DNA of 64,000 nucleotides from a virus. Both the position numbers and the translations under genes were made by a program. A model generated the notes under the pieces. That model was not told where the DNA came from, searched no databases, and saw nothing but the letters and a program-made list of their open reading frames with translations. The DNA is taken from IMG/VR virus record IMGVR_UViG_3300006903_000012, one strand, 5' to 3'. This document shows, piece after piece, positions 31,480 through 58,737 of this stretch. Each line of letters begins with the position of its first letter. Positions within the stretch are counted from its first letter, which is position 1.

Positions 31480-31491
31480 ATACTGCTCCTT

Positions 31492-32196: not shown

Positions 32197-32205
32197 TTTT
32201 TTCTC

Positions 32206-33949: not shown

Positions 33950-33972
33950 TTCCGCTTTCTCCTTATAACTAA

Positions 33973-40047: not shown

Positions 40048-40954
40048 CCCATCTATTACTAGATGGCTTAGACTATACCTTCAAAGGCCGCGTATTATCA
40101 AGACAAAATAAAAGTCTCGATCTCGGATTTCTCCTCAGTCGTTACGGGGTCAAACTTTTACAAGTCGACTTCCCTCGGTATTACCCTCGTCTTCAGCGGT
40201 CGGGTTTCACCGATATGAGCGGCGTGCCGGGCCATTTCTTATTTTCCGATAAAGGCCGGAAAGCTAATTTTCTGCTTCCTGCTTCCGATCAATTTCTGCA
40301 TCACTTTCTCATCGAAGCTTTTTATCTTATCAGCTACCTGCCCAATATTTTTTAACTCTTCAGCCCAAAGAATCAGAACCGAAAATCCTTGCTTTTTGAT
40401 ATACTCAATACGCTTCACATCATAGCACCGCATTTTTCCATCTTTCCTATGATGGGTATACCCAAAAACATCGATAACAGCTTTAGCGTCCACTCGACAA
40501 AAATCAGGGCAGAATCTGCCAATCATTAGTCGACCATTCCCAACATACTCATACGGCAGATCCATCAATTTTAGAATATCCCGCACTTGCTGTTCGGGTA
40601 ATGATAACGGACGATTCCACAACGAGCTAGAAAGTCTTTCAGCACCATAAGTCGGATCTGTCTTATACAAAATTCTAGACTTCTTCCTTGCCTTCTTGGC
40701 GGCCTTACTTCTAACATCAGTTGTTAAGTGAGCTAGCCCGGTTTTCTCAAAAAGACCCTGCTTCATTCTTATTGAGTGTTCCTTACCCTGTTTAGCTGTT
40801 TTCTTTTTTCCTTCGGGTGTAGCATGATACAACTTCTTTGACTTTGAAATCTTCTTTGCGACTGCTTCACGTTCCTTTGCTGAACGGTTCTTCCAAAGTC
40901 TTTTTGCAGCTATTGAACATTTAATGCCTTTACTGGTCTTTTGCATATAGAATT
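40048..40954 (-). mobile_element. Group I intron I4 in the capsid gene, carrying a Vsr-like endonuclease upstream of P3
   Basis: Proposed P1 pairs exon GGUU (U-G at 40955) with GACC. After the ORF comes a full core with CUCAUAUCGGUGAAACCC...AAUACCGAGGGAAGUCGAC, CCCCGUAACGACUGAGGAGAAAUCCGAG, P8 AUCGAGAC...GUCUUGAU, and GAAGGUAUAGUCUAAG, with P9 CCAUCUAGUAAUAGAUGG. Confidence 0.8.
40239..40946 (-). CDS. Intron-encoded Vsr-like homing endonuclease (235 aa)
   Basis: YEYVGNGRLMIGRFCPDFCRVDAKAVIDVFGYTHH is paralogous to HE 41290..42126 (YEFVGNGKLMIGRYCPDFKRDDYRALIELGGFRH). The N-terminus has basic repeats. Confidence 0.65.
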   Translation of the reverse strand: MQKTSKGIKCSIAAKRLWKNRSAKEREAVAKKISKSKKLYHATPEGKKKTAKQGKEHSIRMKQGLFEKTGLAHLTTDVRSKAAKKARKKSRILYKTDPTYGAERLSSSLWNRPLSLPEQQVRDILKLMDLPYEYVGNGRLMIGRFCPDFCRVDAKAVIDVFGYTHHRKDGKMRCYDVKRIEYIKKQGFSVLILWAEELKNIGQVADKIKSFDEKVMQKLIGSRKQKISFPAFIGK

Positions 40955-41249: not shown

Positions 41250-42270
41250 CACAACGTTAAGCATCATTTTCAGTTACCTGAAAGATAGACTATACCTTCA
41301 TCCTCTTTCGAGGAGCTCTGCGTATTACCGTATTGGTTTCTTTTAGTCGTTCCGACTTTTGTATCCTCTTATCAAAAATCAATAATTTAACCGCTAAGGA
41401 TTCCAAATCTTGTAATTCATCTTCATCGATAACTAAAGTCTGATATCCTTGAGATTTTATGTACTCAGTTCTTTTCTCAACTCGATCTCTCAGCTTTTTG
41501 GTCTTCTGATATGCCTTATGCCGAAAGCCACCTAGCTCAATCAAGGCGCGATAATCGTCTCTCTTAAAATCAGGACAATACCGTCCAATCATCAGTTTAC
41601 CATTACCAACAAATTCATAAGGTAATCCCAGTAGCTGTAAAAACGATTCAAGTTGGATCTCAATTCTGGACATCGAGCGCTTATTTAGAATTTTAGAAAC
41701 AGTATCAGCATGAACATCGCAAGATTTGTAATGCTCGTTTATTGATTTCTTAAACTTCTTCCTTCGAACAAGTCCGCCAATTTTCCAAATTTTCTTCTGT
41801 ATCTCAGATAGATACTTCCGATGAGATGCTGTTCTGACAGTTTTTCGTAGCGCTGTAGTTCTTCGTTTTCGTATTTTGGGGTCTGTCCATTCCAATTTTC
41901 TCATCTCACTGCGTCGTTTCTGCTTATCTGGATCAGAGTAATAGATATCTTGTTGTCGCTTTGCTCTTTCTTTTATTTTGCTAGGAGTCAGAATCCGCTT
42001 CTGAGCGACACTCTTCGCTTTATTTACCCTCTTAAGTTCTGACTTAGATATCTTATACTTGTATGCTCGTACTGGCTTTCCTGTTCTTGGACTTGTTCTA
42101 ATTTTATTTTTCCGGCTCAAGGCCAATCCTCCTACTTTACAATACGGTCTCGCCTTTCGGCTCAGTCGTTACGGGGTCACGAAGACTTCCCTCGGTGTTG
42201 TCCCTGTGGGAGTTCACCGATATGAGCAGAGTTGTTTCATGTGTATTACTACACAAGGAGACCTTAGTTG
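41250..42270 (-). mobile_element. Group I intron I3 in the capsid gene, carrying a Vsr-like endonuclease in P8
   Basis: P1 pairs exon GAGAU (42275-42271) with GUCUC. P2 is UGUGUAGUAAUACACA. The core has GCUCAUAUCGGUGAACUCCC...AACACCGAGGGAAGUCUUCGUGACCCCGUAACGACUGAGCCGAAAGGCGAG and 3' GAUGAAGGUAUAGUCUAUC, with P9 UUUCAGGUAACUGAAA. Confidence 0.8.
41290..42126 (-). CDS. Intron-encoded Vsr-like homing endonuclease (278 aa, TTG start with AGGAGG RBS)
   Basis: See 40239..40946. The N-terminal half is Lys/Arg-rich and repeated, and the stop lies inside J8/7-P7'. Confidence 0.65.
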   Translation of the reverse strand: MALSRKNKIRTSPRTGKPVRAYKYKISKSELKRVNKAKSVAQKRILTPSKIKERAKRQQDIYYSDPDKQKRRSEMRKLEWTDPKIRKRRTTALRKTVRTASHRKYLSEIQKKIWKIGGLVRRKKFKKSINEHYKSCDVHADTVSKILNKRSMSRIEIQLESFLQLLGLPYEFVGNGKLMIGRYCPDFKRDDYRALIELGGFRHKAYQKTKKLRDRVEKRTEYIKSQGYQTLVIDEDELQDLESLAVKLLIFDKRIQKSERLKETNTVIRRAPRKRMKV

Positions 42271-42293: not shown

Positions 42294-42486
42294 CTTTGTT
42301 ATCTATATCTTCACATTCGATATAGGTCAGACTATCTCATCACCCACGTTTGTGGGGCTTCCCTCTTAGTCGTTACACATTGCCCGACTGCAGTTAGCAA
42401 TCTGCTTAGCTCGGTGTTGGCATCACAGCGTTCACCGAATTCGAGAAGTTTTATATCAGTTAATTACTTAACTGTACCCCCAACCG
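42294..42486 (-). mobile_element. Minimal (about 193 nt) ORF-less group I intron I2 in the capsid gene
   Basis: P1 pairs exon ACCCU (42491-42487) with GGGGU. P2 is AGUUAAGUAAUUAACU. The core has CUUCUCGAAUUCGGUGAACGC...AACACCGAGCUAAGC, GUGUAACGACUAAGAGGGAAG, P8 CCCCACAAACGUGGG, and UGAUGAGAUAGUCUGACC. Confidence 0.8.
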
Positions 42487-42522
42487 AGGGTATTGGGCCG
42501 TAAAATCGGTTGGCGTCACATA
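42487..42522 (-). CDS. Major capsid protein, predicted micro-exon 2 (YVTPTDFTAQYP)
   Basis: 36 nt, phase 0 to phase 0, between the G at 42523 and the U-G splice site at 42487. An alternative frame exists, so confidence is low. Confidence 0.4.
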
Positions 42523-43020
42523 CGGTTGTGGACATTTTGTTACTTAGGAAGTGATTCTATAAATTCATCTATTGTTGCGAACTCTGTGTAGCGTCCATTG
42601 ATTATATCTTCGTCTACTTTGGCTTCTTTCTGTTGCCATTCCTTTGTCCAAAACCATTGCTGATCTAACAAAGAACTTGCTAACAACAGACTAGTCCAGA
42701 TACTGACAAGTCGTCCGTTTGATTTCCTCAAAGCTATATAATCAAACAAGAAGACCCTTGGAACCTGAAGCAATCGACCAAACCAAGAACGTCGCTTCAA
42801 TGGATAAACCATAACTTATCTCCTAAGGATCAATCATTTCTGTTGATCTCTTACACTTCTAATTTGTGCAAGTTCAGACTATCTCTTCGTCTTGAAAGAC
42901 GCTATCCGTATAGTCGTTACACATTTAGTTAATTGATTAACTTTTAGCTCGGGATTAGCGTCGCAGCCTTCCCCGAATTAGGATAGATCGCATAAATAAA
43001 TCTTATGCCCCTCACTATTG
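42523..43020 (-). mobile_element. Group I intron I1 in the capsid gene (with a 90-aa ORF 3' of P9)
   Basis: P1 pairs exon UCCUU (U-G at 43021) with GAGGG. P2 is GCAUAAGAUUUAUUUAUGC. P3 is UAUCC/GGAUA. P4 is UUCGGGG...UCCCGAG. The rest of the core is GUGUAACGACUAUACGGAUAG, P8 CGUCUUUCAAGACG and AAGAGAUAGUCUGAAC. Confidence 0.8.
42540..42812 (-). CDS. Intron-borne ORF of unknown function (90 aa)
   Basis: AGGAG RBS 7 nt upstream of the ATG at 42812. No nuclease motif recognised. Confidence 0.45.
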   Translation of the reverse strand: MVYPLKRRSWFGRLLQVPRVFLFDYIALRKSNGRLVSIWTSLLLASSLLDQQWFWTKEWQQKEAKVDEDIINGRYTEFATIDEFIESLPK

Positions 43021-43296
43021 AAGGATCACCGGATCCGTCGCCTTTGTCACCAACCCGCCATCCAACCCTTTGGATTTCAAAATATGCTCTGTCATAGACT
43101 TCACGAGCAACGGATCAGCTTCGAAACCCTGGGCATTCAAATTCTTCAAAACTTGTTTCGTAATTTCGTCAGCGCCGTATGGATCATTCAGATTCACACC
43201 AGCGCTTTTTGCAAACAGACGAGCCGCATCATTGGCCGACATACCAGCCACCGGCAACACTTGCGGCACCGTCAACATATTATCAAAAGCATCCAT
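43021..43296 (-). CDS. Major capsid protein, predicted exon 1 (MDAFDNMLTVPQVLPVAG...KATDPVIL)
   Basis: ATG at 43296 lies 20 nt after the scaffold stop. 92 codons run up to the U-G splice site, and the track ORF stop (43015) lies 2 codons into the intron. Confidence 0.6.
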
Positions 43297-44895: not shown

Positions 44896-47800
44896 CTAAG
44901 AAACTGACACTAGTGTTTCGGCCACAACCGGCACTCTGGTAAACGCAAAATGTTCGATCCAGCCCCTCAGAAAATCACGCTGATTACTGGACTTCTTAAT
45001 TACACCATCTGAATCGGGATAAAATCCCATTGAAATTCTAATACAATCTTCATGCGGAATTTTATTTTGAATGTCTGATTTGACTTCTTGATACAACTGC
45101 CGACCTAATGCTGTCGGAAAAAAGATACCCCGTGCTTTTGGTTGCCGACCGTCTATCCAAATGTCAGTTGCGATCCCAGCGCTCAATCGTTCAGTTCCAC
45201 ATTTAGGACATAGATAATCAGTTAACGATTTGAACTCATAACCGCAGTCACAATCATAGAGAGAATAATGCGCGACACTGGCAAACGGCGGCGGAACTGT
45301 TTTTGATTTGAACCGTCGAATGGCTTCTTCATAAAATGCTTTAGTAACTTTATCGCCTTCAATATCTCTATCGAATTTGGTGGTAGTGGCTTCCCACTCC
45401 ATCATCCCATCATCTTTTATGCGAGCTTTTGTAATTCGCCACTCAGTTCGGAAAACATCAGAACTAAAAGAGATGGGAACTAAAGTTTGTGACTTTTTAA
45501 CTTGTGCGTCTGAAAAATCATCTAAGATTTTATCTGCCAGTTTAGAGTTAAGGGCATAATAATTTTTCAAATGTTTTTTAGCTTCCGAAATACTATCTTT
45601 ATCTGAGCTATCTCGAGATAGATGTGACCAAACATCACCAACAATTGCAGTCCCATAACGATCAACAAGTTTCGAAAGCATCTTATTAGAAGCTACATCT
45701 GAGTTATATCTACGTCTGGCATTATTATTTGTTGATCCTGAAAGAGTTGGCGCAACCTTTTGAAAAGCATTCTGATTTCCGGTGCCCTCTCCAACTCCAA
45801 TAACATGCTCACCAGGCAAAGAATTACTATGACCATGTGTACTTTGGTCATGCTTGCCTGGGAGATGTTTCTGTTCACCACCACTCTTCTCTTCTGCATC
45901 TGCTCGCCAAGCATCTAAACATTCATACTCTTTTGGATTCTTATTCGGTTGGAATCCATCTCGTGCCTTCTCAAACGCATCGGCCGCTTGTGAATATTTA
46001 CCAGCGTGATAAGCATTCCACCCTTGCGCAATCCATTTACCTGAATAGTATTTGTAATATTCTGACCAGATAGCTTTCAAGCAGCTTTGATCGGCCTTGG
46101 AAATAAGCGACTTACCTACCTTATCCAAAAGAACATCTTGATAATCGGCAATTTGTTCGCCCAAATTCTCAATGCCTTGCGACAACCTAGTTCTGGCTGT
46201 GGGATCTTTTGTTGAAGACAGATCTTCTTTTGCTCGAGCACGCTGTTGTTGAGCTAAATCGATTCTAGAATGTAACTCGGAAGTAGATAACTTGTTAAGT
46301 ATCTTTTGGTCTCGCTGTCTTTCATCGGCAGTACGGTTTGATAGAACTTTTCTTGTTGTCGGAACCTTCGCCCCGCCTCCTACCTTCTTCTTCGCCGCTG
46401 CAATGCTAGTATCATTATCTTTGGCATATTGTCGAGCCGCCGCATCGCGCAGTTGAGCAGATGTATGCGCAACTTTCCCACTGGCGCCTTTGATGCCAGC
46501 ATGACTCGACTGGTCGTGTTGTCCAGGGAGATGTTTTTCTTCCAATATATGTCGACTTGCCGCTAAATATGCTTTTAGCGACTTAAAATCTGAACCTTTG
46601 CCACGACCATAAATATCAAGTCCTTTTGAACTATGATGCTCCCACTTGCCAGAATCAGCAATATATATAGAATGTTCCAACTGATTACGTCCGTTACCCG
46701 TAGTGGACTCATATAGATCTACACCTCGTATAGGCAACGGATTATATTTAAATCCGTGTTCACTTAGCATCTTAGTAAATTCAGGTGACCGCGGAGTTCT
46801 GGTTCGACCATGACTGCTTTGGTCATGTTTACCCGGCAAATGCTTCTGCTTACTCTCATGTATCTCATTATACTTCTTGTGAACCTCAGGAATTTTATGA
46901 TCTTCTGAACCATCGTCTGCCAGTTGACCGATCTCCCGCAACTCATCTTGATAAAGAAATCGGTGGTAACCTTTTGGAAGTAGTGACTTTGTTTCTTCAT
47001 CAGTCTCGAATTCAATATCATCCAATGCAGAAGTAGCTAATTCGATTACATTCCGCCAAGCATCCCGTTCAGCTGACGTATAGTTATAAATCTTCCTAGG
47101 TTTATCAAGCTCTCTCGACAAGGCAGAAACCGCGGAATTAATGTCATGCTGTGTCTCTGGAGTAAGGTCTTCGATCTCACTGGACTGTCGTAACTGTCTC
47201 AACAAGTCTCGACCAGCACCTCGTCCGGCCCTGGTTCCCGGTCCGAACTTTTTCAGATCAGACAGATGTGACTGACCATAACCAGCATGACTTTGTTGGT
47301 CATGTTTACCCGGCAAGTGTTTCTCAACTGCCGCCACAAACAAACTCTTCTGTAACAAATAATTCTGTCGCGCTTTTTCGACTTCATTATGCGGTTGATA
47401 CTCATGCCCGCATTTTGAGCATTTATGAGTTCCGCGTCCAATATGTGGATCTTCAACTGTACTACCGCATTTAGGACAAGCGGCAGTTGGGAAATGTTTC
47501 TCAGTCATTGATTTCTTGTATTGCTGATTCGAGAAGATATTATCACTTATAAATCGATCCACTTGTAAATTAGCATCATCAAAATCACCACGATCATAAT
47601 CTACACTTTTCCAATCGAAATTATCTCTGTCTCCATTAGAAACAAAAAACTCTGCTAATACAGTTCTGCCAGAATCGGGCAAAGCCGGTATAGTATCAGC
47701 AACATAATTCAACTTAACATCATTTGACATCTGATTTATCCAAACATCAGCTGCTTGTTTTTTTGATTTCGCACGTCCACTGCGTACTAAGTCTGATGTT

Positions 47801-48216
47801 ATTTGTGACTCAAAACTTTTAACAAGTTCCTTTGCTGCACTTGTCACATCGGCATCAGATGCTTTATATGGATCAGGTCTCTTTTGTCTCATCTTCCCGG
47901 CATGTGTTCCTTGATCGTGCTTGCCGGGAAAGTGCTTTTCCGATAACGATTTCTGATTCTGCTTAGCAACAAATGCTAACAATTCATCAGGATCAATTTC
48001 TATTTCTCCGCCACCGAAATTATGTGCGCCAAGATGCGCTTCTGGAATCGATTTCTCGTGCTTGAAATACTCGACTTCAGCCAGACGCTTTGTGGCCCAG
48101 TCTTTACTAGGTCCGCAACCTAGATTTCTTTTTCCGTCTTCACTAACCACACACCACTGATTGCCTTTTTTCTTAATCCGCTTTTCAACCAACTCGCTGA
48201 TTACAAAGTCGGCCAT
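44896..48216 (-). CDS. Modular 1106-aa polyprotein ending in an HK97-type (S78-like) prohead protease domain; five HDQ motifs
   Basis: The C-terminal ~200 aa match my recollection of prohead proteases (FDRDIEGDKVTKAFYEEAI...FASVAHYSL...IRISMGFYPDSDG...HFAFTRVPVVAE). The upstream modules are separated by five KH(F/L)PG(K/Q)HDQxxH(A/G) motifs. Confidence 0.6.
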   Translation of the reverse strand: MADFVISELVEKRIKKKGNQWCVVSEDGKRNLGCGPSKDWATKRLAEVEYFKHEKSIPEAHLGAHNFGGGEIEIDPDELLAFVAKQNQKSLSEKHFPGKHDQGTHAGKMRQKRPDPYKASDADVTSAAKELVKSFESQITSDLVRSGRAKSKKQAADVWINQMSNDVKLNYVADTIPALPDSGRTVLAEFFVSNGDRDNFDWKSVDYDRGDFDDANLQVDRFISDNIFSNQQYKKSMTEKHFPTAACPKCGSTVEDPHIGRGTHKCSKCGHEYQPHNEVEKARQNYLLQKSLFVAAVEKHLPGKHDQQSHAGYGQSHLSDLKKFGPGTRAGRGAGRDLLRQLRQSSEIEDLTPETQHDINSAVSALSRELDKPRKIYNYTSAERDAWRNVIELATSALDDIEFETDEETKSLLPKGYHRFLYQDELREIGQLADDGSEDHKIPEVHKKYNEIHESKQKHLPGKHDQSSHGRTRTPRSPEFTKMLSEHGFKYNPLPIRGVDLYESTTGNGRNQLEHSIYIADSGKWEHHSSKGLDIYGRGKGSDFKSLKAYLAASRHILEEKHLPGQHDQSSHAGIKGASGKVAHTSAQLRDAAARQYAKDNDTSIAAAKKKVGGGAKVPTTRKVLSNRTADERQRDQKILNKLSTSELHSRIDLAQQQRARAKEDLSSTKDPTARTRLSQGIENLGEQIADYQDVLLDKVGKSLISKADQSCLKAIWSEYYKYYSGKWIAQGWNAYHAGKYSQAADAFEKARDGFQPNKNPKEYECLDAWRADAEEKSGGEQKHLPGKHDQSTHGHSNSLPGEHVIGVGEGTGNQNAFQKVAPTLSGSTNNNARRRYNSDVASNKMLSKLVDRYGTAIVGDVWSHLSRDSSDKDSISEAKKHLKNYYALNSKLADKILDDFSDAQVKKSQTLVPISFSSDVFRTEWRITKARIKDDGMMEWEATTTKFDRDIEGDKVTKAFYEEAIRRFKSKTVPPPFASVAHYSLYDCDCGYEFKSLTDYLCPKCGTERLSAGIATDIWIDGRQPKARGIFFPTALGRQLYQEVKSDIQNKIPHEDCIRISMGFYPDSDGVIKKSSNQRDFLRGWIEHFAFTRVPVVAETLVSVS

Positions 48217-51200
48217 GTTTTGTCATCCTCAATTCGTCCTAAAATTTCATAATGTTGCCGACCTACTGGCCGAGCTTGAATTTTTTGCAGCCAATTTTCT
48301 AAGGCTTGATTTGAATTGAACGCCATCACATCTGTTATTTTTGTAACCGGATCGCCAGCGTTATCAACTTCTTCTTTGACACGCACCGTTCGTCCGTCTA
48401 TTTGTAAATTCTTCAGTCGCTTTAATTTCTCAAAATTTCCACGATTGAAGAAATTCAAATCCGGCGGGCGTCCATCATCTGGATCATGTACACCAGAATA
48501 ACCAGTGCCAGTATAGAACGCTTTCTGCTCTAGCTCAGAATATTTAGAATCATATTCATCCATCCACATTCTCAAAGACAGATGATTAATACTATTAACA
48601 TGAACACTTTGATCTGGTAAATCTACATCATCAAAATAAAAATAACCTTTGCCTTTAACAAGTTCTGTTTTCGTCCTGCCCGTAACCTTCAGTGCTCGAT
48701 TAACTTGAGCAACTGTTTTAGGAGTTTTACTGAAATCCATTCCTGATTCTTTTTCCAAATTTCCTGCATGAGTCTTCTGATCGTGTTTGCCAGCTTGGTG
48801 TTTAACTAAAATCTCATACCCATCTTTTTGTAACTGTCGCGCCGCTTGTTTCAACTCACCTTCAACAATAAGACTCTTAACAACTATTGGCAACTCATCA
48901 TCGAAATCATATTTCCCATTATTACTCTTTACGACTGATCGAACTAATGCCGGCATCTCAGGTTTGTAATATTCAAACCCATAATGCAGCACCATGTCTA
49001 AAAAGTCTTCATAGTAACGCTTCAAGTTCTCGTCATTGACCGATTGTAGATCTTCTGTCTTAGCCCGGTCTTTGATAAACTGCTCAAATTCTTTTCGATA
49101 TTGTCCGGGGATTTTTTCAGCATAGCTATCAAATCCCAAAAGTGATTTTTCAGTCTTGGAATTACCAAAAAGATAAAACTCTTTTTCATTTCCCAGATAC
49201 AACCACACCCCAAACACATCCCATGTTACTGCTAATTCTTTCTCAGCCCCCATTGAAGTTAACTGGTTATCTGAAACTGTTACATGGGGTTTATATCCGC
49301 CCGCTTCCCACGTTCGATCTGGTGCCTGCCCATTCGACAACAAACCCGCCACCAAATCATCATGTAGATGTTTTAGGGCGGGTGTGATTTTGACTTCTGC
49401 CACAGACACTTCTTGCAGGGTTATTATAGTGCCGGTCAGGTTGAGTGTCAAGGATTTTTGATCGTATTCAGAACACACTTTTTCGATAGTTTTTCTTATC
49501 GCCAGTGAGTCAAAATACCGATCCATTTTTCCTAAGTAAACTAGTGTGATATGTGGCTCAGACTTTTTGAAATCTAACAGGTTAACTATCTCATTCGGGA
49601 CCGATAGAGCAATCATACAGGTATCATCATGCTCAGCTTTTTCTTCAACTATCTTCGACCCTTTGATTCCCTTAGCTCCAAAAATCTTGGCTCGGCCCGC
49701 TCGGATATCATCTATCGGCAAATCACCTACATCCACCAAAGCCGCTTCAACATACTCATCGGCATCGGTGCCCCATACAATTCCTGCATAAGCATAATTG
49801 CCGCCGAGCACATCTATCTCACTGTCACTAATTACCGGCACCAGACTATATTGTTGTAGATAATGCTGCGCATCGGCTACACTATCAAACCGAGACCGCT
49901 TACCAATTTGATCGGGCTGACCCCATGAATTCATGGGAAGAGATTTTTCTTTAATGGTTGTGCGATATGTTTTGTCGCCTTCTGGATCCTTCCAATCTGA
50001 AACAACCTTAACCTTTGTATTGCCTGGAACACCGAAATACTCAAGTCCACTCAAAGCTGATTTTAGATTCTGATAGGCCCGATCTTCATTATTTCCAGCT
50101 CCCATCTGACCAAAGGCTGAACCGATCCACGGATCACCTCCCTCGGTATCTACTAGAACAAGCCGAACTGCTCGATTAAATGCCGCCTGTGATAACTCGG
50201 CACTATATGCAAGCTCATGGTGACTTGTATCATTCTCAATCTGGCGACCCGCATACCACTTTCCATCTACTTTAATTAATAAAAGATTGAGATGTTTCTT
50301 AATTTCAGACTTTGTCGGGTGCCAGAACTTGTCTCGTTGATAGCTCCCGGGACCAAGCTCTGAGTAATATGACACACTGGGTTTACTAAATTTGTGCTCA
50401 ACCGCAGGTTTACCAATATCTTCTGGCACAGGAGTAGAAGAAAGAGCGCCGGCATGCTTTTTCTGATTATGCTTTCCCGGTTGGTGTTTCTCAACTGCTT
50501 TCTTATTTTCAGCAATAATTCGTTGCGTCTCTTGTTCCAGAATTTCTTTCAGCTTCGCATTCGACTCATCACCGTTCCAATAATGTCCGCCATCTTTCAA
50601 AAAGTCTTCGAATTCTTTTGGGTTCGACTGCAAGTTGCAATGGCAAGTCATGGGATGCGCCGGTGGATGTTGTGTTGTCTCACCGTCGAACACCGTTTCA
50701 TACTCAAAGTCTAAAGGCACAAATCCTTGCTCTTCATTTTGAGTACAAATATCACACACATCGTACCCACGCGTGATCCAACCTTTAGTCTTCAATCCCA
50801 CTGCTGTCATTTGATCTAGAGTCGCCCGAGAATCAGCCCAATTCAATTCCGTATTTACAATTGAACGAATGCGCGACTCACTTAACTTACCAGCATCTTT
50901 CTTAAATTTCAAACCAAAAAGATTCGCCTGGATATAATCGACAATTTCTTCGCTGCTCAAACCATTATCATAACCAGTCAAAATATTTTGCCGAAGGAAA
51001 TATTTTGTTCCACTATCGACATGCTGAACTAATGTGGCTGCTCGTGCATCTAACAGATCAATCACCGACGGATTAGTCAGAATGAACTGAAATTCTTTTG
51101 GTAACGTCAGTCGATCAGCCAAACCCGCTTCAAACATTTGCTGCTGAATATCTTGAACAGCCGTCAGAGAGCCTTCAGAATATGCTTGCCGCAAAATATC

Positions 51201-53270
51201 TAACAACTGATCTTGAATATCAGGCAGACAATACCAATCTTGCTCATTTAGAATATCGTCGAGTTTTTCAGATGCGGTAATTTCCGCTTTTTCTATTAAA
51301 TCAATTTTAGATTTTTCTTCATGGTTAATATTCCATTCCCAGATCTTTCCAGTTTTTGTTTCAGATATGATCTTACCCCCAAGAGCTTCGTTCATTGAAT
51401 TTGGCCGAATATTACCATGCTCAACATAAGCTCTAACAGAGTTAATACCCGACGATGCAAGTAACTTAAATATAGCATTTGCTGTTTCTTTTCCAAATCC
51501 AGAACCAGAACGTGACGAATCTATTCGATTGAAGTAGGCATAATCACGATCATTATTGGGTAACTCTACTGTTGCAGTTACTACTATATCATCTTTAGGA
51601 AGTGCATTTTCTAACCAATTTTCTTTTCTTAACCTATCGTTTATTTTAGCATCAAAGAAGAGCCTGTCGCCGGATTGAGTAACAGTTATGTCTAACCTAT
51701 CTGTGTGAATTTTACTGGGAATATTATCTTTTTTACCATACTCACCAGCATGTGATTCTTGATCGTGCTTGCCGGGGAGGTGTTTTTGTATTTCGTTATC
51801 TAACTCAACCAAACTTTTATACTCTTCAAGCGGCGCAACTAATTCTTCCAAATGCTCAATAGTTAACTGATTACCGACTTGCTTAAAAGACTCTTGCAGT
51901 AATTTGCTAAACTTCTTAACTGTCTCACTTGAGTTTCTTAATTGCTTGCCGTCCGCTAACAAATCTTCCGCCAGCGATTTAGCATATTGTTGCATCTCGC
52001 TGTAAGCACTGTCTATTTGATCGAGAGCTTCAGGTTTGTTAGCATCTTCTTGCAGGCCACCGATCGCTTCAGTATCTTGATCGATAGAATCCAGACTATC
52101 ACTAGGGAAACTATCCATACCTTCAAGCCCCGGAGCCGCTGGTAACCCGCTTGTTTTCACGTCAATAATTTTCCACGCCTCAGCTTGTTTCTGAGCATCA
52201 ATCGGTTTCAAGATCGGTTGATTACCAGTCAAAGTCATTAGCATCGTTGCACGTTTACCAGCCAGATCTGCTTGCACACTCGTCTCGCCGGTCATATCAA
52301 TTTTGAACTTGAACTTGAACCCAGATGCAGTCGACATCAGAATCTTTGTATTAATGAGATCCTCGACTAATTGAGCATAGAAACCAGTGCCCGCTCGCGA
52401 CGATACTTTTGAAGACGCTTCCACACCCGCCAATGTACGATCATGCTCAAAGATTCGCAAATCGCCAATTGACAATCCAAACGCAGCACACACCATTTCA
52501 GCAAAACGTTTGAAATTCTCAATCATATTCACATCAGCCGGCGAAAGAGTTAATGGAATAAATCTCGCCGGCTTTGTGTGATCGTACAACAGTGGCATTT
52601 TCATGGGATCAATGTCATTCCACATTTCGCGGAAACCTGTTGCCCATGCGATTGCTTCTGCTTCAGACATATCCATAACATCCAAAATCCCAGCCATCGG
52701 TGTGTTACCCAATTGCTTGAGATAATAAAGATAGATGCGCGAGAGAGCTTCAATCGATAAAAATGCACTTTCAACTGGCGCTTCTTGAAATACTTTGCGA
52801 GTCAAATCAGTTCGTGGTTGAGTAATCAAACGAATCACATCGCCACGACCAAAATAAACTCGATCTAATCCATTATAGGGATTGATCTGTACAAACGGAA
52901 TGTCGCGATCATAGGTGGGGTATAATGTTTCACCATCAATATGATAGAGACCACCAATGATTCCGTCCATTTCAGGATTCGCCACAACTTCAGCATTTCC
53001 CGCAATGGGGAGAATTAGAGCATCTTGCAGCATGCGCGACAACCATACGTCCCAACCATCACCATCATCTGCATCCGCCAGAACTTTCTCGAGATACATT
53101 TTCATCTCGCCTTGTTCTTCTGGCTTATCACTAACTATTTCCCATTCCAAAGATACAAGTTCGCGCAAGATATGCCGAATACAAAGCTTTGTAATCGGCT
53201 CCGTCGCAACTTGATACTTCCACTGAGCTACCGACAAGCGAGTTGGGTTAGCTAAATAAAGCGGTTGCAA
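48201..53270 (-). CDS. 1689-aa fusion: portal protein + GNAT-like + MuF/SPP1-gp7-like head morphogenesis + repeat module + 2H phosphoesterase (LigT-like) + C-terminal module; the real 5' end is probably not the TTG at 53270
   Basis: The portal-like N-terminal ~470 aa is called from position and size. The GNAT-like string is RSGSGFGKETANAIFKLLASSGINSVRAYV. The MuF-like string is NTELNWADSRATLDQM...GWITRGYDVCDIC...HPMTCHCN. Two HxT motifs are HITLVYLG (about 49553-49525) and HVTV (about 49296-49266). There are three HDQ motifs. Confidence 0.65.
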   Translation of the reverse strand: MQPLYLANPTRLSVAQWKYQVATEPITKLCIRHILRELVSLEWEIVSDKPEEQGEMKMYLEKVLADADDGDGWDVWLSRMLQDALILPIAGNAEVVANPEMDGIIGGLYHIDGETLYPTYDRDIPFVQINPYNGLDRVYFGRGDVIRLITQPRTDLTRKVFQEAPVESAFLSIEALSRIYLYYLKQLGNTPMAGILDVMDMSEAEAIAWATGFREMWNDIDPMKMPLLYDHTKPARFIPLTLSPADVNMIENFKRFAEMVCAAFGLSIGDLRIFEHDRTLAGVEASSKVSSRAGTGFYAQLVEDLINTKILMSTASGFKFKFKIDMTGETSVQADLAGKRATMLMTLTGNQPILKPIDAQKQAEAWKIIDVKTSGLPAAPGLEGMDSFPSDSLDSIDQDTEAIGGLQEDANKPEALDQIDSAYSEMQQYAKSLAEDLLADGKQLRNSSETVKKFSKLLQESFKQVGNQLTIEHLEELVAPLEEYKSLVELDNEIQKHLPGKHDQESHAGEYGKKDNIPSKIHTDRLDITVTQSGDRLFFDAKINDRLRKENWLENALPKDDIVVTATVELPNNDRDYAYFNRIDSSRSGSGFGKETANAIFKLLASSGINSVRAYVEHGNIRPNSMNEALGGKIISETKTGKIWEWNINHEEKSKIDLIEKAEITASEKLDDILNEQDWYCLPDIQDQLLDILRQAYSEGSLTAVQDIQQQMFEAGLADRLTLPKEFQFILTNPSVIDLLDARAATLVQHVDSGTKYFLRQNILTGYDNGLSSEEIVDYIQANLFGLKFKKDAGKLSESRIRSIVNTELNWADSRATLDQMTAVGLKTKGWITRGYDVCDICTQNEEQGFVPLDFEYETVFDGETTQHPPAHPMTCHCNLQSNPKEFEDFLKDGGHYWNGDESNAKLKEILEQETQRIIAENKKAVEKHQPGKHNQKKHAGALSSTPVPEDIGKPAVEHKFSKPSVSYYSELGPGSYQRDKFWHPTKSEIKKHLNLLLIKVDGKWYAGRQIENDTSHHELAYSAELSQAAFNRAVRLVLVDTEGGDPWIGSAFGQMGAGNNEDRAYQNLKSALSGLEYFGVPGNTKVKVVSDWKDPEGDKTYRTTIKEKSLPMNSWGQPDQIGKRSRFDSVADAQHYLQQYSLVPVISDSEIDVLGGNYAYAGIVWGTDADEYVEAALVDVGDLPIDDIRAGRAKIFGAKGIKGSKIVEEKAEHDDTCMIALSVPNEIVNLLDFKKSEPHITLVYLGKMDRYFDSLAIRKTIEKVCSEYDQKSLTLNLTGTIITLQEVSVAEVKITPALKHLHDDLVAGLLSNGQAPDRTWEAGGYKPHVTVSDNQLTSMGAEKELAVTWDVFGVWLYLGNEKEFYLFGNSKTEKSLLGFDSYAEKIPGQYRKEFEQFIKDRAKTEDLQSVNDENLKRYYEDFLDMVLHYGFEYYKPEMPALVRSVVKSNNGKYDFDDELPIVVKSLIVEGELKQAARQLQKDGYEILVKHQAGKHDQKTHAGNLEKESGMDFSKTPKTVAQVNRALKVTGRTKTELVKGKGYFYFDDVDLPDQSVHVNSINHLSLRMWMDEYDSKYSELEQKAFYTGTGYSGVHDPDDGRPPDLNFFNRGNFEKLKRLKNLQIDGRTVRVKEEVDNAGDPVTKITDVMAFNSNQALENWLQKIQARPVGRQHYEILGRIEDDKTWPTL

Positions 53271-53559
53271 TTTGTTACAAAGTCTTACAGACCTTTGAGT
53301 AAGTCATTTCTGCTCACTTCTTGCAATTCCTATTTCTTGCAAGTTCAGACTATATCATTATCTTTCTTCAAGATAGTTCCCACATAGTCGTTACACACTT
53401 CCGCAGATGCGGGTTGGCTCGGTATTTGGACTCTCACCATTCACCGAATTCGAGAACTGTTACAACATCCATTACTGGATGAAGCCGCCAAGTTGACGGG
53501 TTAAGTAGGGGGGCGGTTGCTGTATACTCGTCGGCGCAACCGACTTCTGTACAATAAGT
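53268..53559 (-). mobile_element. Group I intron core (I0) abutting the first codons of the portal ORF; 5' splice site unresolved (the element may include HE 53560..54432)
   Basis: P2 is CAUCCAGUAAUGGAUG (about 53484-53463). The core has UUCUCGAAUUCGGUGAAUGG...AAUACCGAGCCAACC, GUGUAACGACUAUGUGGGAA, P8 UAUCUUGAAGAAAGAUA, and AUGAUAUAGUCUGAAC. P9 is UUGCAAG...AUUGCAAG, followed by two more hairpins. A candidate terminal G is at 53268. Confidence 0.7.
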
Positions 53560-54432
53560 TCATCTGCCATCAATATTTCTCCTGAGAAATAATTTCTCAA
53601 CCCGAGCAACTTGCTCTTTTGTGTTCTTCAAAAGTTTTGTATCCCAAATCACAATAACCTTATACCCTGCATCTTTATATGCTTGAATTCTTTTCTTATC
53701 TCTTGGATTATCTTTCGCATGCCAGTAGACACCAAAAAGCTCAACAATTATTTTCTTATTGGTATTTACAAAATCTGGGTTAAACCTATTTACCCAAAAT
53801 GCACCGTTACCCACATATCTAAAACCAAATCGCTTTAGATATCTCATCAGAAGTTTTTCTGGTTTATTTGGACTTCTAGGTTCTAATCGTTTCTCAATAA
53901 CTGCATCTTTCTCACTATCTGACAAACCATCCCAATATTTTCTGAGTGATTTAGAAAGTTTATCTGACCTGAGTTGCTTAGCTTTCCTTGGTGTACGCAA
54001 CCAAGTTTCGGTAACAGATTGCGAAATCTTTTTAGCTATTTCTTGTTCTTCCTCGGCAGTTCGTCTTTTGTGTACTCGCTTAATCGCTTTCGACAAACTT
54101 TTACGAAATTCAGCATCACGCTCAGGAGTAAAGTTTCTTCTGGCTTCCGCTGATTTCCTACCAATTCGTTGTCTTTCTTCTATCGGTACCTTAGCATGTC
54201 TTTTCTTTTGAATCCTTGAAATTCGAGCACAAACTTCGGCAGAGTATTTATTGCCCTTGTTGGGCGATGGTCGACCCAAATTCTGGACAGACAGCAGAAA
54301 CTTAGTCTCATCACTCATCACTCGACCGTTGTGATGATTGATAAATCGTCTTCCAAAATTCGCTCGTTCACCACATCCACATAGACACAACGGTCCTTTT
54401 TTAGATTTAGACTTTTGTTTTCGGCCTGCCAT
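53560..54432 (-). CDS. Vsr-like homing endonuclease with NUMOD3-like repeats (290 aa), adjacent to or within intron I0
   Basis: The C-terminus RYVGNGAFWVNRFNPDFVNTNKKIIVELFGVYWHAKDN matches the family. The N-terminus has CLCGCG plus repeats of S/T.E.......I....K type (SDETKFLLSVQ, SAEVCARISRIQKK, TPERDAEFRKSLSKAIK, TAEEEQEIAKKISQS). Confidence 0.65.
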   Translation of the reverse strand: MAGRKQKSKSKKGPLCLCGCGERANFGRRFINHHNGRVMSDETKFLLSVQNLGRPSPNKGNKYSAEVCARISRIQKKRHAKVPIEERQRIGRKSAEARRNFTPERDAEFRKSLSKAIKRVHKRRTAEEEQEIAKKISQSVTETWLRTPRKAKQLRSDKLSKSLRKYWDGLSDSEKDAVIEKRLEPRSPNKPEKLLMRYLKRFGFRYVGNGAFWVNRFNPDFVNTNKKIIVELFGVYWHAKDNPRDKKRIQAYKDAGYKVIVIWDTKLLKNTKEQVARVEKLFLRRNIDGR

Positions 54433-54461: not shown

Positions 54462-54914
54462 TTATACCGGCAGAATCGCCACAATTTTTACTCTAAATGT
54501 ATCTTCACTAATTGTCTGAGTCACGGTAAATCTAGTCCGTCGACTAGCACCCCGAAGTGTCAAGGTCGCTGAAGAAGCAAACATCGCAACCCCAGCCACA
54601 TCCCATCGCAATAAAAATTCATCATCAACCTGTGATCGGTGCACTAATTCTTTCGACCAATCTGTATAACTATATGTAATTTCTTCAGGTTCAGAGTCTT
54701 CGACAGAAACACTATGTGATCGAAATAATTTTGTAGTTGAATCGACTAACGCAGAATTTGCAGATCCAGATAAAGCTGCAAATAAGTTAGGATAATTCTT
54801 TCTAACCTGGGCCGCATGTTGACCTAAATCCATCAGCGCTTCATCATAAGCCACTTCACCCGAAAAGACTTTCTCTAAAGCTGCTAACACCGCATCTAAT
54901 TCTTTATTTGCCAT
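54462..54914 (-). CDS. Hypothetical protein (150 aa)
   Basis: Minus ORF in the head module; no motif recognised. Confidence 0.55.
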   Translation of the reverse strand: MANKELDAVLAALEKVFSGEVAYDEALMDLGQHAAQVRKNYPNLFAALSGSANSALVDSTTKLFRSHSVSVEDSEPEEITYSYTDWSKELVHRSQVDDEFLLRWDVAGVAMFASSATLTLRGASRRTRFTVTQTISEDTFRVKIVAILPV

Positions 54915-54943: not shown

Positions 54944-55927
54944 TTATAAATTAGATTTCTCTTTAATAAAAAATGCCGATGCAGGAGGTGTCGGTTCGTC
55001 CGAATATCCTTCCCAATCATCGGGAGTTTTATCACTTAAAAAATTAGTTAGGAATTCTGCACGTTTTGGATATCGTTCAGAAAAATAATCAGGAAGAGTG
55101 TAAAACAATTCAACTGACGTTGCAAAATCTTCTGACAAATTAGTCTTACTTAGATGTGCAGAATGGATTTGTCTAGCGTTTTTCTTCTCACTATTGATTA
55201 CATTTTTCCAAAGCTTAGATCTGCTAAAACTTAAAGAACCCTTACTGGCACCCATTGCAGCGTCCAAATTATGTGCCAACTCGTGAATCGCTGACCGTTC
55301 ATCGGTATAATTCAAAACTGGTGGATGAGAGTCTTGTTCTTCAAGTGGACGACTCACTACGGAAAATGTCCCAGCAATTCCAGTAACAAACCCTTTCTTT
55401 CTAGAAAAAACTCTCTTCCTATATTTAGAAATTTCATTCTTTGCCCAAGACGGAAATCTTCCTAAAGCCTGCTCATAAACCGCTGCATCGTTCTCGTAAG
55501 TCGCAAAATTTCTAACCATCGAACCAGCATGCGTTTTCTGGTCATGCTGGCCGGGCAAATGCTTTCCAATACTTCCACTTGTCTCTTTCCGGCCCACTAA
55601 CATCTTCAATCGCCCCTTCGGCGTCAATAGCAACGTCCGAGTTGTACCACCTGCACTACCATTACTTGTTTCTAACTGCTCAACTAAACCTTGTCGCACT
55701 AATTCGTGAATCTCATTTTTGTGCTGCATCCAATAAACATCTGAAAGTGCGTGACCTTCAGTTTCTATTTTGTAGAGAATTTCAGATTCGAAATTAGATT
55801 GGCCGAGTTGAGATTCGTCGATATTAGACTTTTCAACAGATGCTCGTCTCTTCGGATCATGCAAAGAATGTATCTCAGTAACTAAATCAAGAACATAGTT
55901 CCCATCGCTATCAGTATAAATTTTCAT
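54944..55927 (-). CDS. HExxH (zincin-like) metallopeptidase-motif protein with one HDQ motif (327 aa)
   Basis: Contains GKHLPGQHDQKTHAG (about 55567-55523), then AIHELAHNLD (55291-55262). Confidence 0.5.
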   Translation of the reverse strand: MKIYTDSDGNYVLDLVTEIHSLHDPKRRASVEKSNIDESQLGQSNFESEILYKIETEGHALSDVYWMQHKNEIHELVRQGLVEQLETSNGSAGGTTRTLLLTPKGRLKMLVGRKETSGSIGKHLPGQHDQKTHAGSMVRNFATYENDAAVYEQALGRFPSWAKNEISKYRKRVFSRKKGFVTGIAGTFSVVSRPLEEQDSHPPVLNYTDERSAIHELAHNLDAAMGASKGSLSFSRSKLWKNVINSEKKNARQIHSAHLSKTNLSEDFATSVELFYTLPDYFSERYPKRAEFLTNFLSDKTPDDWEGYSDEPTPPASAFFIKEKSNL

Positions 55928-58737
55928 TGATTAATAACCAAGTCAGCTACAAGTAACGGAGCCTTAAAACTATCTGTCCGAATAGTTGTACTTCTAACTT
56001 CTACTTTACCATTAATAATCGGTACAATCTCATGCTCATCATTGTATCCAAAATTATTAATTTTATAAGAATATAAAATAGATTCTCTAGGGACATTAAC
56101 TATAAACATTAACTTTCCTTCAGAAAAATCATGTGCTACCTCATAAGTATCTGACCAATGACCGACAGTATCTACATCAGCTAATTTTATACTTCCATTA
56201 GCAATTCTTGTAATTAATTCATCAGGAACATCTAAACCTCTATGAAGCACAACAGAGTTCTCTGGTAATGTCAGTTGTGCTGCAGCCCACATCATATCGA
56301 GACCTGGATCATTTTTTCCGGCTGTCCAAGATTTTACTCTAGATGCTAGCTCGTCGGCACTCCCCTTTTTACCATCATAAAATCTTTCTATACTGACAAA
56401 TGCAGATAGTACTGATCTATTATAGGGAGTGTTTAAAATACGATCTTTATCTGAAAAAGTAATTCCCAAATCCTCAAACCTTTTTCTGTCATCATATACA
56501 TAGTTACCCACTTTATATCCCTGCCCCACAGTATTTCTTACTGCTTTAACTCCGCCAGCCTTTTTCACAATACCAATCATTTTTCTGGCACGTTCCAACG
56601 ATTTGTTTTTAGCAATTCCACTTGGTCGCCCATGTGTTAACTGATTGTGTCTACCGGGTAAATGCTTCTTAATCTCTTCTCGCAACTTCTCTTTAGCAAG
56701 ATAATGCTTAACGACTTCATCAAGTCTAGAATCTTGCTCCAATATCTGATCTGTAGTAAAAGATTCTAACTTGCCATATCCATCATCTAATAATAGCTTT
56801 CCCTTATAACCAGCAGACTGTAAACTGGTAGCTAAACTTAAGACATCGCCTTTAGGCGGCAAATCAGATCGAATATCAAAAAGAGACATTCCGGGCTTAA
56901 ATTTCTCAGTTGAATAAATATAAATACCAGCAGATGATAATGCTATCCGCATGGCTATCATTCGACTACTGTCAGTCTGCCGCAACAAGTTTTTAGCCAG
57001 AACAATATGCTCAACTGAAGACCTGCCGGACGGAGCAAAGACCAACCGATCTTCAGTTGGCAAGTATAAACCGACGACACTGGACGAGTCGTCTTCTTCA
57101 GAATTCTCAACCTCTGACAGAACTTTATATGCCTTTGCTAATTCGTTTTTATTGGACGCTACAATATCATCCCCAGCATGAGATTGTTGATCGTGTAACC
57201 CTGCTAAATGTTTTATTTCCTGCACTTCACGGTACACTCGATCACCCGCATCAATTTGATTACGCAGTTTCGCAATTGTGAAAGCATCACGCGATTGGAG
57301 AGCCATCTTTAGTTTATCTTCCAATGAGCGTCGGCGAGATATCCAAGCCTTATGAGCACCAGAAGATGTGCCATATTTTTCAATTAGAGATTTTTCTCCA
57401 ATTGTCGTAGAATAATCGTCTTCTTCATTATTAATATCTTGAATATATACCTTCATTGATTTTGGTAAACCAAAATACTCAAGACCAGATAAAGCCGATT
57501 TTAAATTACGATACGCATCATCACTTCTAGTACTACCTAAATGATCTGAGAGCGAACTGACTACCAACTTTTCATCTGAACCTTTTACAAGCCTAAGACG
57601 AACAGATTTATCGAACTCATCAGAAGAGAGACCAATATCTGCAGCAAGATCGGCATGCATTGAAATTTTATTTTTAGTTCCTTGTATTGCTGGTTTTGCA
57701 TACCATTTCTTACCAACTTTCAGTAACAATAAGTTTGATCTCCAGAAACTATCATTTTGATAACTATCTTTCAACAAATTAGAGTAATAAATTGTCCCAT
57801 CTTTAGATTTATGTTTCTCAGCCAATGATGTAGCAATACTACTACCATCATTACCACCATGAGTTTTCTGATTATGTTTCCCCGGTTGATGCTTCTCAAA
57901 CACTATCGGATTCTCATTCTCATCAAATCCCAGCGCGATTCTAATTTGCTCAGCTAATTCGGCGGCAGCATCTTTCTTTTTCTTATCTTGGTCGGCACTG
58001 ATTATTTCGACAGGGCTAATAGGTTGGGGATATTCAGCAGCAAAATCGGGCAGATACTTGATACTCAATATCGCATCTTGTAATCTTTTGACTGCCAAAG
58101 ATTTGACCGTCGTCGTAACGACTCGGCCTGAATGCAAATCAATTTTAACAGGAGTCTCGGCAGGTATTCCAATTTGATAAAGTTTATCTAGCGCCCAATA
58201 AACTTTCTTAACTCTCGGCTCATCATCAGCTGGACCAACTATTCCTGTGCCTGAGCGATCTATAGTTATTTGACCTTTCTGATATCTAAACCGAATGCTT
58301 GTATCAAACAAATGCCTAATATCCGCATTAGCAGTTATATCAGCGTGAACAGCATCAGAATCCAGTGTTGCATAAACATTGCCGTTAGGAGTAACAATAG
58401 CTGTTACCTTTTCGTTGTCTATTTCATCATCTTGAAGATCTTTTGTAAAATCTGACCAATCATCTACTCGATAGATATTAAATCGTTTAGATCTACCATA
58501 TTTAGTTGCATCATAAATAAGTTCATTAGAACTCGAAATAATATCTTTGCTACTTCCACCCACTTCACCCTTACGACCACTATGTCCAAAGTTTCCAGAA
58601 CCGACGCCACCTTTAACAACAAGATGCCCAACATCTTGGATAATCATTTGTAATCTTTGTCTAGTGTCAAGCATCTTGAAACTCCTAATCGTGCACTGCA
58701 CTTTCCAAAAGAATATCCGAACCGGACTCAGTAACAT
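55924..58737 (-). CDS. Modular 937-aa polyprotein with a C-terminal ADP-ribosyltransferase-like domain; three HDQ motifs and one GSGNFGHSGRKGEVGGS motif
   Basis: The C-terminal ~170 aa carry an R-S-ExE-like triad (VLHRGLD, GHWSDTY, NDEHEIVP). Internal modules repeat. Confidence 0.55.
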   Translation of the reverse strand: MLLSPVRIFFWKVQCTIRSFKMLDTRQRLQMIIQDVGHLVVKGGVGSGNFGHSGRKGEVGGSSKDIISSSNELIYDATKYGRSKRFNIYRVDDWSDFTKDLQDDEIDNEKVTAIVTPNGNVYATLDSDAVHADITANADIRHLFDTSIRFRYQKGQITIDRSGTGIVGPADDEPRVKKVYWALDKLYQIGIPAETPVKIDLHSGRVVTTTVKSLAVKRLQDAILSIKYLPDFAAEYPQPISPVEIISADQDKKKKDAAAELAEQIRIALGFDENENPIVFEKHQPGKHNQKTHGGNDGSSIATSLAEKHKSKDGTIYYSNLLKDSYQNDSFWRSNLLLLKVGKKWYAKPAIQGTKNKISMHADLAADIGLSSDEFDKSVRLRLVKGSDEKLVVSSLSDHLGSTRSDDAYRNLKSALSGLEYFGLPKSMKVYIQDINNEEDDYSTTIGEKSLIEKYGTSSGAHKAWISRRRSLEDKLKMALQSRDAFTIAKLRNQIDAGDRVYREVQEIKHLAGLHDQQSHAGDDIVASNKNELAKAYKVLSEVENSEEDDSSSVVGLYLPTEDRLVFAPSGRSSVEHIVLAKNLLRQTDSSRMIAMRIALSSAGIYIYSTEKFKPGMSLFDIRSDLPPKGDVLSLATSLQSAGYKGKLLLDDGYGKLESFTTDQILEQDSRLDEVVKHYLAKEKLREEIKKHLPGRHNQLTHGRPSGIAKNKSLERARKMIGIVKKAGGVKAVRNTVGQGYKVGNYVYDDRKRFEDLGITFSDKDRILNTPYNRSVLSAFVSIERFYDGKKGSADELASRVKSWTAGKNDPGLDMMWAAAQLTLPENSVVLHRGLDVPDELITRIANGSIKLADVDTVGHWSDTYEVAHDFSEGKLMFIVNVPRESILYSYKINNFGYNDEHEIVPIINGKVEVRSTTIRTDSFKAPLLVADLVINQ

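Follow-up and report, generated by a model that had tools for sequence, protein, structure and literature searches.

An intron-interrupted portal fusion with MuF, GNAT and 2H phosphoesterase modules, and a recurrent 14-residue peptide as its candidate cargo tag

The IMG/VR virus record IMGVR_UViG_3300006903_000012 was analysed over a stretch of 64,000 nucleotides, referred to as the window. On its minus strand one gene encodes a portal domain, a MuF-like head-morphogenesis domain and several further modules in a single chain of 1713 residues. We consider this product, with a probability of about 80%, to be a 'polyvalent' phage virion protein, i.e. a portal subunit with a C-terminal MuF domain and effector cassettes, and its enzyme cassettes are probably carried in the capsid and injected. 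Two features of the locus appear to be undescribed for the polyvalent class. One is a group I intron with a partner endonuclease in the portal gene, the other a 14-residue peptide, here called the HDQ tag, which stands in front of cassettes.

The frame from 48201 to 53270 is open without interruption over 5070 nt (1689 codons plus stop), as the original prediction had stated. Three contigs (two in the cluster table) encode an identical protein. Its nine homologues, 968–1678 aa long and all from other metagenome assemblies, are colinear fusions, so that the long frame is real. Whole-gene megablast and tblastn searches of 50,697 GenBank phage records returned no similar sequence. In the following, residue positions of the portal fusion refer to the full protein of 1713 aa, P0001 denotes the window protein and P0002–P0010 its nine homologues, and L-numbers denote contigs or loci of relatives. 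All features of the fusion gene and its neighbours lie on the minus strand.

The portal domain (52053..53267, aa 26–430, with aa 1–25 encoded separately in exon 1) matches PHROG 2662 with E=4e-23 over aa 15–325. Pfam PF04860 (Phage_portal) is hit with E=3e-7, at 30.3 bits and thereby under its cut-off of 39.1 bits. The domain is 51–65% identical to those of the nine homologues. The MuF-like head-morphogenesis domain (50622..51269, aa 692–907) was assigned by PHROG 2468 'head morphogenesis' (E=1.8e-12); Pfam PF04233 reaches just E=0.09 in the window protein and 0.0014 in P0005. At 29% identity (tblastn E=2e-8) this domain is related to the MuF ORFs of L005 and L013, of which the L005 ORF scores above the Pfam cut-off and the L013 ORF equals it in length and tag position. 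As to the head-gene context, MuF is part of the portal chain itself and a protease-like module follows downstream; neither a terminase nor a capsid gene was recognised in the window.

Between portal and MuF lies the GNAT acetyltransferase cassette (51330..51713, aa 544–671), which among the portal fusions is found only in the window protein. The segment alone remained below threshold in a Pfam search (only FR47, E=0.04) and found no match in a word-indexed homology search. An exhaustive HMMER search retrieved 68 distant relatives, mostly standalone proteins of 130–165 aa. Pfam Acetyltransf_1 (PF00583) is matched by 29 of the 43 aligned relatives, and the family profile matches solved GNATs in the PDB with E=1.4e-6. 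The cassette's RSGSGFGK aligns with GKGYG of the GNAT family, i.e. with motif A (R/Q-x-x-G-x-G/A), the acetyl-CoA-binding loop. An AlphaFold2 model reached a pLDDT of 88.6, and Foldseek placed RimI first (E=6e-6), followed by other GNATs, with probability 1.0. According to this model, the cassette has a RimI-like GNAT fold, and acetyltransferase activity is predicted.

Two further cassettes follow MuF. The first, segB (49938..50447, aa 966–1135), has no Pfam match. It belongs to a stretch shared with a neighbouring 937-aa ORF (aa 945–1135, nt 50510–49938), which BLASTP aligned over 195 aa with aa 275–451 of that ORF at 43% identity (E=2e-31). The second is a 2H phosphoesterase cassette (49161..49634, aa 1237–1394) with the H-x-T motifs HITL and HVTV. 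Pfam PF13563 (LigT-like) is matched with 40.4–44.5 bits against a cut-off of 27 bits (E=4e-10 to 2e-11), and both catalytic H-x-[TS] motifs are invariant across the four homologous cassettes. The 2H cassette is missing from P0003 and P0004.

The remaining parts are segC (49635..49937, aa 1136–1236; 44–67% identical in P0002–P0006), segD (48807..49145, aa 1400–1512; 31–45% identical in P0002–P0006) and the C-terminal tail (48204..48761). The latter is divided into tailN (aa 1528–1600), a cassette matching the function-unknown family PHROG 9154 with E=3.6e-12, and tailC (aa 1601–1713), the terminus of the backbone, which is 40–63% identical in P0002, P0003 and P0005. Searches of Pfam and PHROG gave no functional assignment for segC, segD or the tail. 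PBECR was considered as an identity for the conserved tail and rejected, the one weak match (P0005, E=0.9) being treated as noise.

These results agree well with the original prediction, which had placed on this frame a portal-like N-terminal region, a GNAT segment at about 51700-51300, a MuF-like domain at about 51100-50620, a module common with the 937-aa protein, a LigT/2H domain with HITL and HVTV, and a tail of about 190 aa after the last HDQ motif. All five domain calls were supported by profile searches, GNAT by structure modelling as well, the positions were correct to within a few tens of bases, and the tail measures 186 aa. GNAT was the weakest of the five domain calls; it is now carried by the family profile and a confident structure model.

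A BLAST-based module map of the ten proteins reveals a constant backbone of portal–linker–MuF–segC–segD–tailC. P0003 (1092 aa) is this bare backbone, with no cassettes and no tags, while the window protein carries GNAT, segB, 2H and tailN. Among the homologues, a PARP-like and an HExxH module are present in P0002, an HExxH module in P0007, and a match to a HipA-like kinase in P0009. In P0008, P0009 and P0010, which are close relatives, an Alt-like R…STS…E-x-E pattern can be discerned by eye at the C-terminus. L018 encodes MuF in a gene of its own directly after the portal fusion, and segC in an upstream gene; hence, modules pass between the portal chain and neighbouring genes. InPase, NUDIX–topoisomerase IB (TopoIB) and peptidase genes are found near the portal in relatives.

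The 5' end of the gene differs from the open reading frame. Full-length homologues all start about 35 residues earlier than the ORF, with "…SIQHAPPYITRQPLYI…". A corresponding exon 1 was located at 53496..53570. It begins with ATG at 53570–53568, is preceded by an AGGAG ribosome-binding site and comprises 25 codons encoding MADELIVQKSVAPTSIQQPPPYLTR, which matches the N-termini of the intronless homologues ('…SIQHAPPYITR/QPLYI…'). Exon 1 is in frame with the ORF and is separated from "QPLYLANPT…" by a stretch rich in stop codons. This stretch is a group I intron of 228 nt (53268..53495; Rfam RF00028, 54.7 bits versus a gathering score of 50), downstream of which exon 2 extends from 53267 to 48201. 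The P1 helix, with its canonical U·G pair, sets the 5' splice site after …CGU, and the intron 3' end is …UUG with the terminal G at 53268. Consequently, the TTG "start codon" of the ORF represents the last three bases of the intron. Removal of the intron restores the frame as LTR/QPLYL, matching the intronless homologues, and compared with the uninterrupted genes of L018 and L019 the intron is a clean insert of about 228 nt. The fold of the window intron has a z of -2.8. A homologous intron occupies the identical codon in L037, the contig encoding P0002 (44 bits, E=3.7e-10), with compensatory stem substitutions and an unambiguous junction. Judged by sequence, the portal gene is thus interrupted by a group I intron, which would have to be spliced out before the 1713-aa protein can be made. 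Once the intron is taken into account, the gene starts at the ATG at 53570 and the mature protein has 1713 aa. The original prediction was therefore right about the frame and about the portal identity of the N-terminus; its start at 53270 lies inside the intron, and both the intron and the true 5' exon had been overlooked.

Gene callers shorten such intron-split structural genes. The public call P0001 (window 48201-53270) begins at the TTG within the intron, and the call P0002 (L037 6001-10767) begins only at a Met inside the portal, so that about 110 N-terminal residues are missing because of the intron in L037.

Directly upstream of exon 1, and overlapping it, lies the gene of a free-standing homing endonuclease of 290 aa with NUMOD3 and a DUF559/Vsr-like nuclease domain (53560..54432; Pfam DUF559 E=4e-8, NUMOD3, and PHROG endonuclease families). 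An orthologue (46% identity, E=8e-91) is situated at the same position in the intron-bearing L037, and no endonuclease is present at the corresponding position of the intronless L018 and L019. In the window the endonuclease gene sits between the portal gene and a 150-aa ORF (54462-54914), a conserved small gene that relatives carry just ahead of their portal gene (L019 9514-9990; a partial match in L018). The psbA intron of cyanophage S-PM2 and its endonuclease F-CphI reportedly show 'collaborative homing', a term associated with work by Bonocora and Shub and by Zeng and colleagues (2009). Our locus is similar in that a group I intron without an ORF of its own occupies a highly conserved coding site next to a free-standing endonuclease gene, and in that intron and endonuclease are co-present or co-absent across relatives. 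It differs in its host gene, which is a portal fusion, and the homing partnership is a putative one here.

The HDQ tag comprises 14 residues with the pattern KH-x-PGKH[DN]Q-x-x-H[AG]G. An 'HDQ motif' had been noted in the original prediction, and it is indeed present; its role as a cassette tag across four adjacent genes was overlooked. The window contains 12 copies, all in frame on the minus strand and distributed over these four genes: a 327-aa ORF has one, the 937-aa ORF and the portal fusion have three each, and a 1106-aa ORF has five. Within the portal fusion, tag 1 (51744..51785, aa 520–533, KHLPGKHDQESHAG) precedes the GNAT cassette, tag 2 (50448..50489, aa 952–965, KHQPGKHNQKKHAG) precedes segB and tag 3 (48762..48803, aa 1514–1527, KHQAGKHDQKTHAG) precedes tailN. 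The first, second and third codon positions of the copies are identical at 78%, 82% and 42%, respectively, compared with 30% in the flanks. Since the first two positions are conserved and neither the third position nor the flanks are, selection acts on the peptide and not on the DNA. A DNA-level recombination site was accordingly rejected, as the third codon positions are unconserved. The same four-gene arrangement in L019 carries 2+2+3+4 copies. Across the ten proteins, 14 lineage-specific cassettes are each directly preceded by a tag, and the cassette-free P0003 has none.

The tag is also found outside this family. Strict back-translated DNA patterns detected it in 16 and 19 IMG/VR contigs, against about 0.1 and about 3 expected by chance on our own estimate. 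At 16 of 30 tag-bearing loci on unrelated viral contigs, MuF is encoded in the same or the adjoining ORF. There it follows MuF at a distance of about 30–40 aa and precedes ADP-ribosyltransferase (ART) domains by about 25–40 aa. Besides ART, tag-bearing proteins contain Macro, TopoIB, Zeta toxin, GNAT, HD, HNH and DUF3626 domains. In 15 of 42 ORFs no more than 60 aa separate the tag from the earliest possible start. One case of a tag at the N-terminus of a standalone effector is the GNAT homologue P0012, which starts with MTYANVIKHLPGKHDQHSHG. A 26-aa tag query found no tag in cultured phages, and text searches of the literature, including Iyer et al. 2017 (PMC5512222), yielded no description of it.

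A module of about 115 aa between the two tags of a MuF–ART protein in L009 (6379-8844) is 38–54% identical to a domain in cultured phages. There it forms the N-terminal domain of 837–975-aa 'major capsid protein' fusions in Synechococcus phage S-CBS1 (gp04, L045) and Roseobacter phage CRP-831 (L047), and it also occurs in a 444-aa protein of Vibrio phage 1.112.O (L046). No HDQ tag was found in these three marine phages.

Candidate processing enzymes are encoded next to the portal fusion. The 327-aa neighbour (54944..55927) consists of an N-terminal region, its HDQ tag and a zincin metallopeptidase domain (HELAH), which matches Pfam Peptidase_M90 above the cut-off (E=5e-7). The idea that zincins form one homologous companion family of the locus was rejected, as neither BLAST nor jackhmmer relates the three HExxH modules to one another. 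Directly downstream, the 1106-aa neighbour (44896..48216) is a polyprotein whose C-terminal ~180 aa (44899-45444) are its most conserved part. Aligned by hhalign with seven annotated HK97-type prohead proteases, this module scored a probability of 70% (E=4e-5), and His65 and Ser114 of HK97 gp4 fall on its invariant H and S. It is a candidate prohead protease of the S78 type, a lead rather than a finding. The window version of the module contains a CxxC…CxxC zinc-ribbon insert which is absent from the L020 version. The L018 copy of the module is joined to a homologue of the 523-aa ORF of the window, and the L020 copy stands at the head of a 713-aa ORF.

The 937-aa neighbour (55924..58737) is likewise a polyprotein and contains the segB paralogue. 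Its C-terminal ~180 aa after the third tag display an R…S…E-x-E-like pattern (LHRG, HWSDT, EHEIV) and are homologous to part of an L018 gene (1758-3542). By eye the pattern suggests an ADP-ribosyltransferase; Pfam and PHROG gave no hit.

How might such a protein act? The C-terminus of a portal subunit faces the capsid interior, and the portal is composed of 12 subunits. Fusion to the portal would hence place 12 cargo copies inside each head, at the vertex through which the DNA exits. As a portal subunit cannot leave the virion, the cargo would have to be cut free for injection. We propose that the tags serve as processing and/or packaging signals, that a co-encoded peptidase cuts there and frees the modules, and that the freed enzymes enter the host together with the DNA and act early in infection. 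GNAT would then acetylate host proteins, and 2H may act on 2',3'-cyclic-phosphate ends of RNA or on 2'-5' or cyclic-nucleotide defence signals. A processing role, possibly in addition to targeting, is favoured because the tags are the sole conserved elements between modules and are kept where targeting is no longer needed; as a statement about the tag itself, processing is a tentative assignment with odds somewhat short of even. The wider proposal is about as tentative. It holds that the peptide is an unrecognised portable 'cargo tag' of MuF-type heads, and that tagged cassettes, whether standalone, in polyproteins or fused to the portal, are loaded into the capsid and freed by a head-associated peptidase.

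Several observations weigh against this scheme. Cleavage, packaging and injection are all deduced from sequence. The 2H cassette, the module of most functional interest, lacks a tag of its own in all four proteins that contain it, and one cassette of P0004 and two of P0006 are untagged as well. Rich in His, Asp and Gln, the tag could equally be a metal-binding or protein-docking element. For the candidate prohead protease the hhalign match is the single signal: Pfam, PHROG, PDB phmmer/hmmsearch and tblastn searches were negative, and a single-sequence model was unusable (pLDDT 36.5). For relatives of this C-terminal module, a word-indexed search and a single-query IMG/VR search came back empty, and an alignment used as the query retrieved just two loci. 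The HExxH modules of P0002 and P0007 have no detectable homology to the M90 domain. Sequence and profile searches of the PDB with 2H gave only insignificant matches, with no Acb1 entry among the profile hits, and the Acb1 profile (Pfam PF23474) matched over 22 residues around one H-x-T only (E=0.021); given this lack of a significant match to solved 2H enzymes or Acb1, we assign no substrate subclass. Finally, scans of IMG/VR and of GTDB genomes for portal relatives found none. As these scans and the GenBank phage searches were empty, the clade has been seen in only about ten assemblies.

Several alternative explanations must be weighed. The tag might serve solely for capsid targeting or docking, in analogy to the T4 capsid-targeting sequence, by binding scaffold, MuF or portal and not as a cleavage site, in which case the internal copies would be relics of fusions between tag-carrying genes. 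Its position near the N-terminus of many standalone proteins (the 15 of 42 ORFs above, P0012 among them), its strong association with MuF and the fact that cassettes carry it along are all in line with this. However, the copies inside the portal fusion need no targeting and are nevertheless under selection at the peptide level, as many as five copies occur in one polypeptide, and portal-fused cargo needs release for injection. Targeting and cleavage are compatible roles, and we regard targeting alone as rather unlikely.

Alternatively, the fused modules could be internal head components that stay in the virion, as scaffold, inner-body or DNA-organising parts, or could modify virion parts during assembly. 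MuF is itself a head-assembly protein, about half of the cargo (segB, segC, segD and tail) has no enzymatic signature, and segC, segD and tailC are conserved like structural parts. Against this, both enzyme cassettes retain intact, conserved motifs (the catalytic pair in 2H, the acetyl-CoA motif in GNAT), and cassettes turn over between close relatives in a manner typical of arms-race effectors but not of structural proteins. Such a purely internal function is therefore improbable.

A MuF-type polymorphic toxin of a temperate phage (Jamet et al. 2017), serving inter-bacterial competition rather than host takeover or anti-defence, would likewise combine a MuF anchor with variable C-terminal enzyme cassettes, and ART, Zeta-toxin and HNH domains do occur in tag-bearing proteins elsewhere. 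But no immunity-like or lysogeny gene was seen among the portal-locus genes examined, and the contig of about 111 kb is rich in introns and homing endonucleases. In addition, GNAT, 2H and zincin here, together with InPase, NUDIX–TopoIB and kinase in relatives, fit the polyvalent repertoire and not classic nuclease toxins, which leaves the toxin explanation a slim chance. An assembly or sequencing artefact merging separate portal, MuF and enzyme genes, for which nothing speaks beyond the unusual length, is refuted by the identical copies and the nine colinear homologues from other samples and is practically excluded.

Classification as a polyvalent protein is best judged against systems already described. 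T4 Alt and other internal proteins of that phage carry a capsid-targeting sequence which is cleaved by the gp21 prohead protease, and the enzymes are injected with the DNA. The signal is about 10 residues long and ends in L-x-E. A short N-terminal peptide that brings enzymes into the prohead and is then cut off by the head protease, it offers the closest functional parallel to the HDQ tag. In sequence, however, it has no similarity to this tag, and the T4 cargo proteins are separate instead of being fused to the portal.

PHROG 2662 is itself a portal–MuF family, its profile of 717 positions spanning portal (58–371) and MuF (544–700). The annotation 'portal and MuF-like fusion protein' is also in use for actinobacteriophages. 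Like the members of PHROG 2662, the window protein has portal and MuF in one polypeptide. By profile length, however, those proteins comprise about 700 aa without further cargo, whereas the window protein has about 800 extra cassette residues and a GNAT between portal and MuF.

The closest published counterparts are the polyvalent proteins of Iyer et al. 2017 (PMC5512222). That study reports fusions of 2H, PBECR and InPase domains to MuF or portal anchors, lists RimI-like GNAT, ART, kinase and zincin peptidase as polyvalent modules, and finds that assemblin-like peptidases are always C-terminal. It locates polyvalent proteins among head genes and predicts their packaging, injection and processing by their own peptidases. 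The window protein conforms to this description with GNAT, 2H and further modules on a portal–MuF anchor in one chain, and its neighbours, in the window and in relatives, carry zincin, InPase and NUDIX–TopoIB modules. The 1106-aa neighbour would obey the rule of the C-terminal assemblin-like peptidase if its protease assignment holds. The suggestion in the original prediction that the MuF-linked enzymes are injected in the manner of Alt, 2H acting on RNA ends or nucleotide signals and GNAT on host targets, is the same as the interpretation given by Iyer et al. 2017 for such proteins. The novelty it attached to the portal and MuF fusion was overrated, since portal–MuF has a PHROG family and 2H and GNAT on portal or MuF anchors are published. 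Thus, given these polyvalent proteins and PHROG 2662, the architecture is already known, and it is the lineage that is unsampled. Unlike the proteins of Iyer et al., the window protein unites portal and MuF in one chain with four cassettes and is encoded by a gene with a group I intron, and a 14-residue tag which the text of that paper does not mention delimits cassettes across four genes.

MuF polymorphic toxins of temperate phages (Jamet et al. 2017, PMC5576092; Zhang et al. 2012, PMC3482391) share the MuF anchor followed by a variable C-terminal enzyme domain, and theirs is encoded beside the portal gene. They possess a single toxin domain, an immunity gene and a prophage location. The window protein differs by several cassettes of non-toxin type, the fusion to the portal and the lack of an immunity or lysogeny gene among the portal-locus genes examined.

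Outside the portal locus, three further group I introns exceed the Rfam gathering threshold (36702-36940, 42305-42496 and 42850-43031, minus strand). Interspersed with at least four DUF559/HNH homing-endonuclease ORFs (36813-37616, 38449-39303, 40239-40946 and 41290-42126), these introns appear to break up one or several genes directly downstream of the head module, leaving exons of about 90–100 aa. Within a region of about 14 kb (~19800-34000, minus strand) lie genes for at least four glycosyltransferases (PHROG 2170, 29879) as well as for a nucleotide-sugar epimerase (PHROG 540, E=1e-65); a glycan-synthesis cluster of this size is unusually large for a phage genome. Four consecutive large ORFs at 5196-14626 (minus strand; 721, 698, 662 and 936 aa) have no PHROG match at E<=0.001.

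With modules shifting between the portal chain and its neighbours, the clade displays the polyvalent-protein strategy in the course of evolution. Fusion to the portal would represent an extreme form of this strategy, as it sets the cargo dose at 12 per virion and places it at the DNA exit. If the tag marks cargo, its 14-residue pattern would flag injected anti-defence or takeover enzymes, many of them function-unknown domains, in uncultured phages. If the proposal is true, the tag would also give a rule for where such polyproteins are cut, predict injected effectors in metagenomes and serve for loading foreign proteins into capsids.

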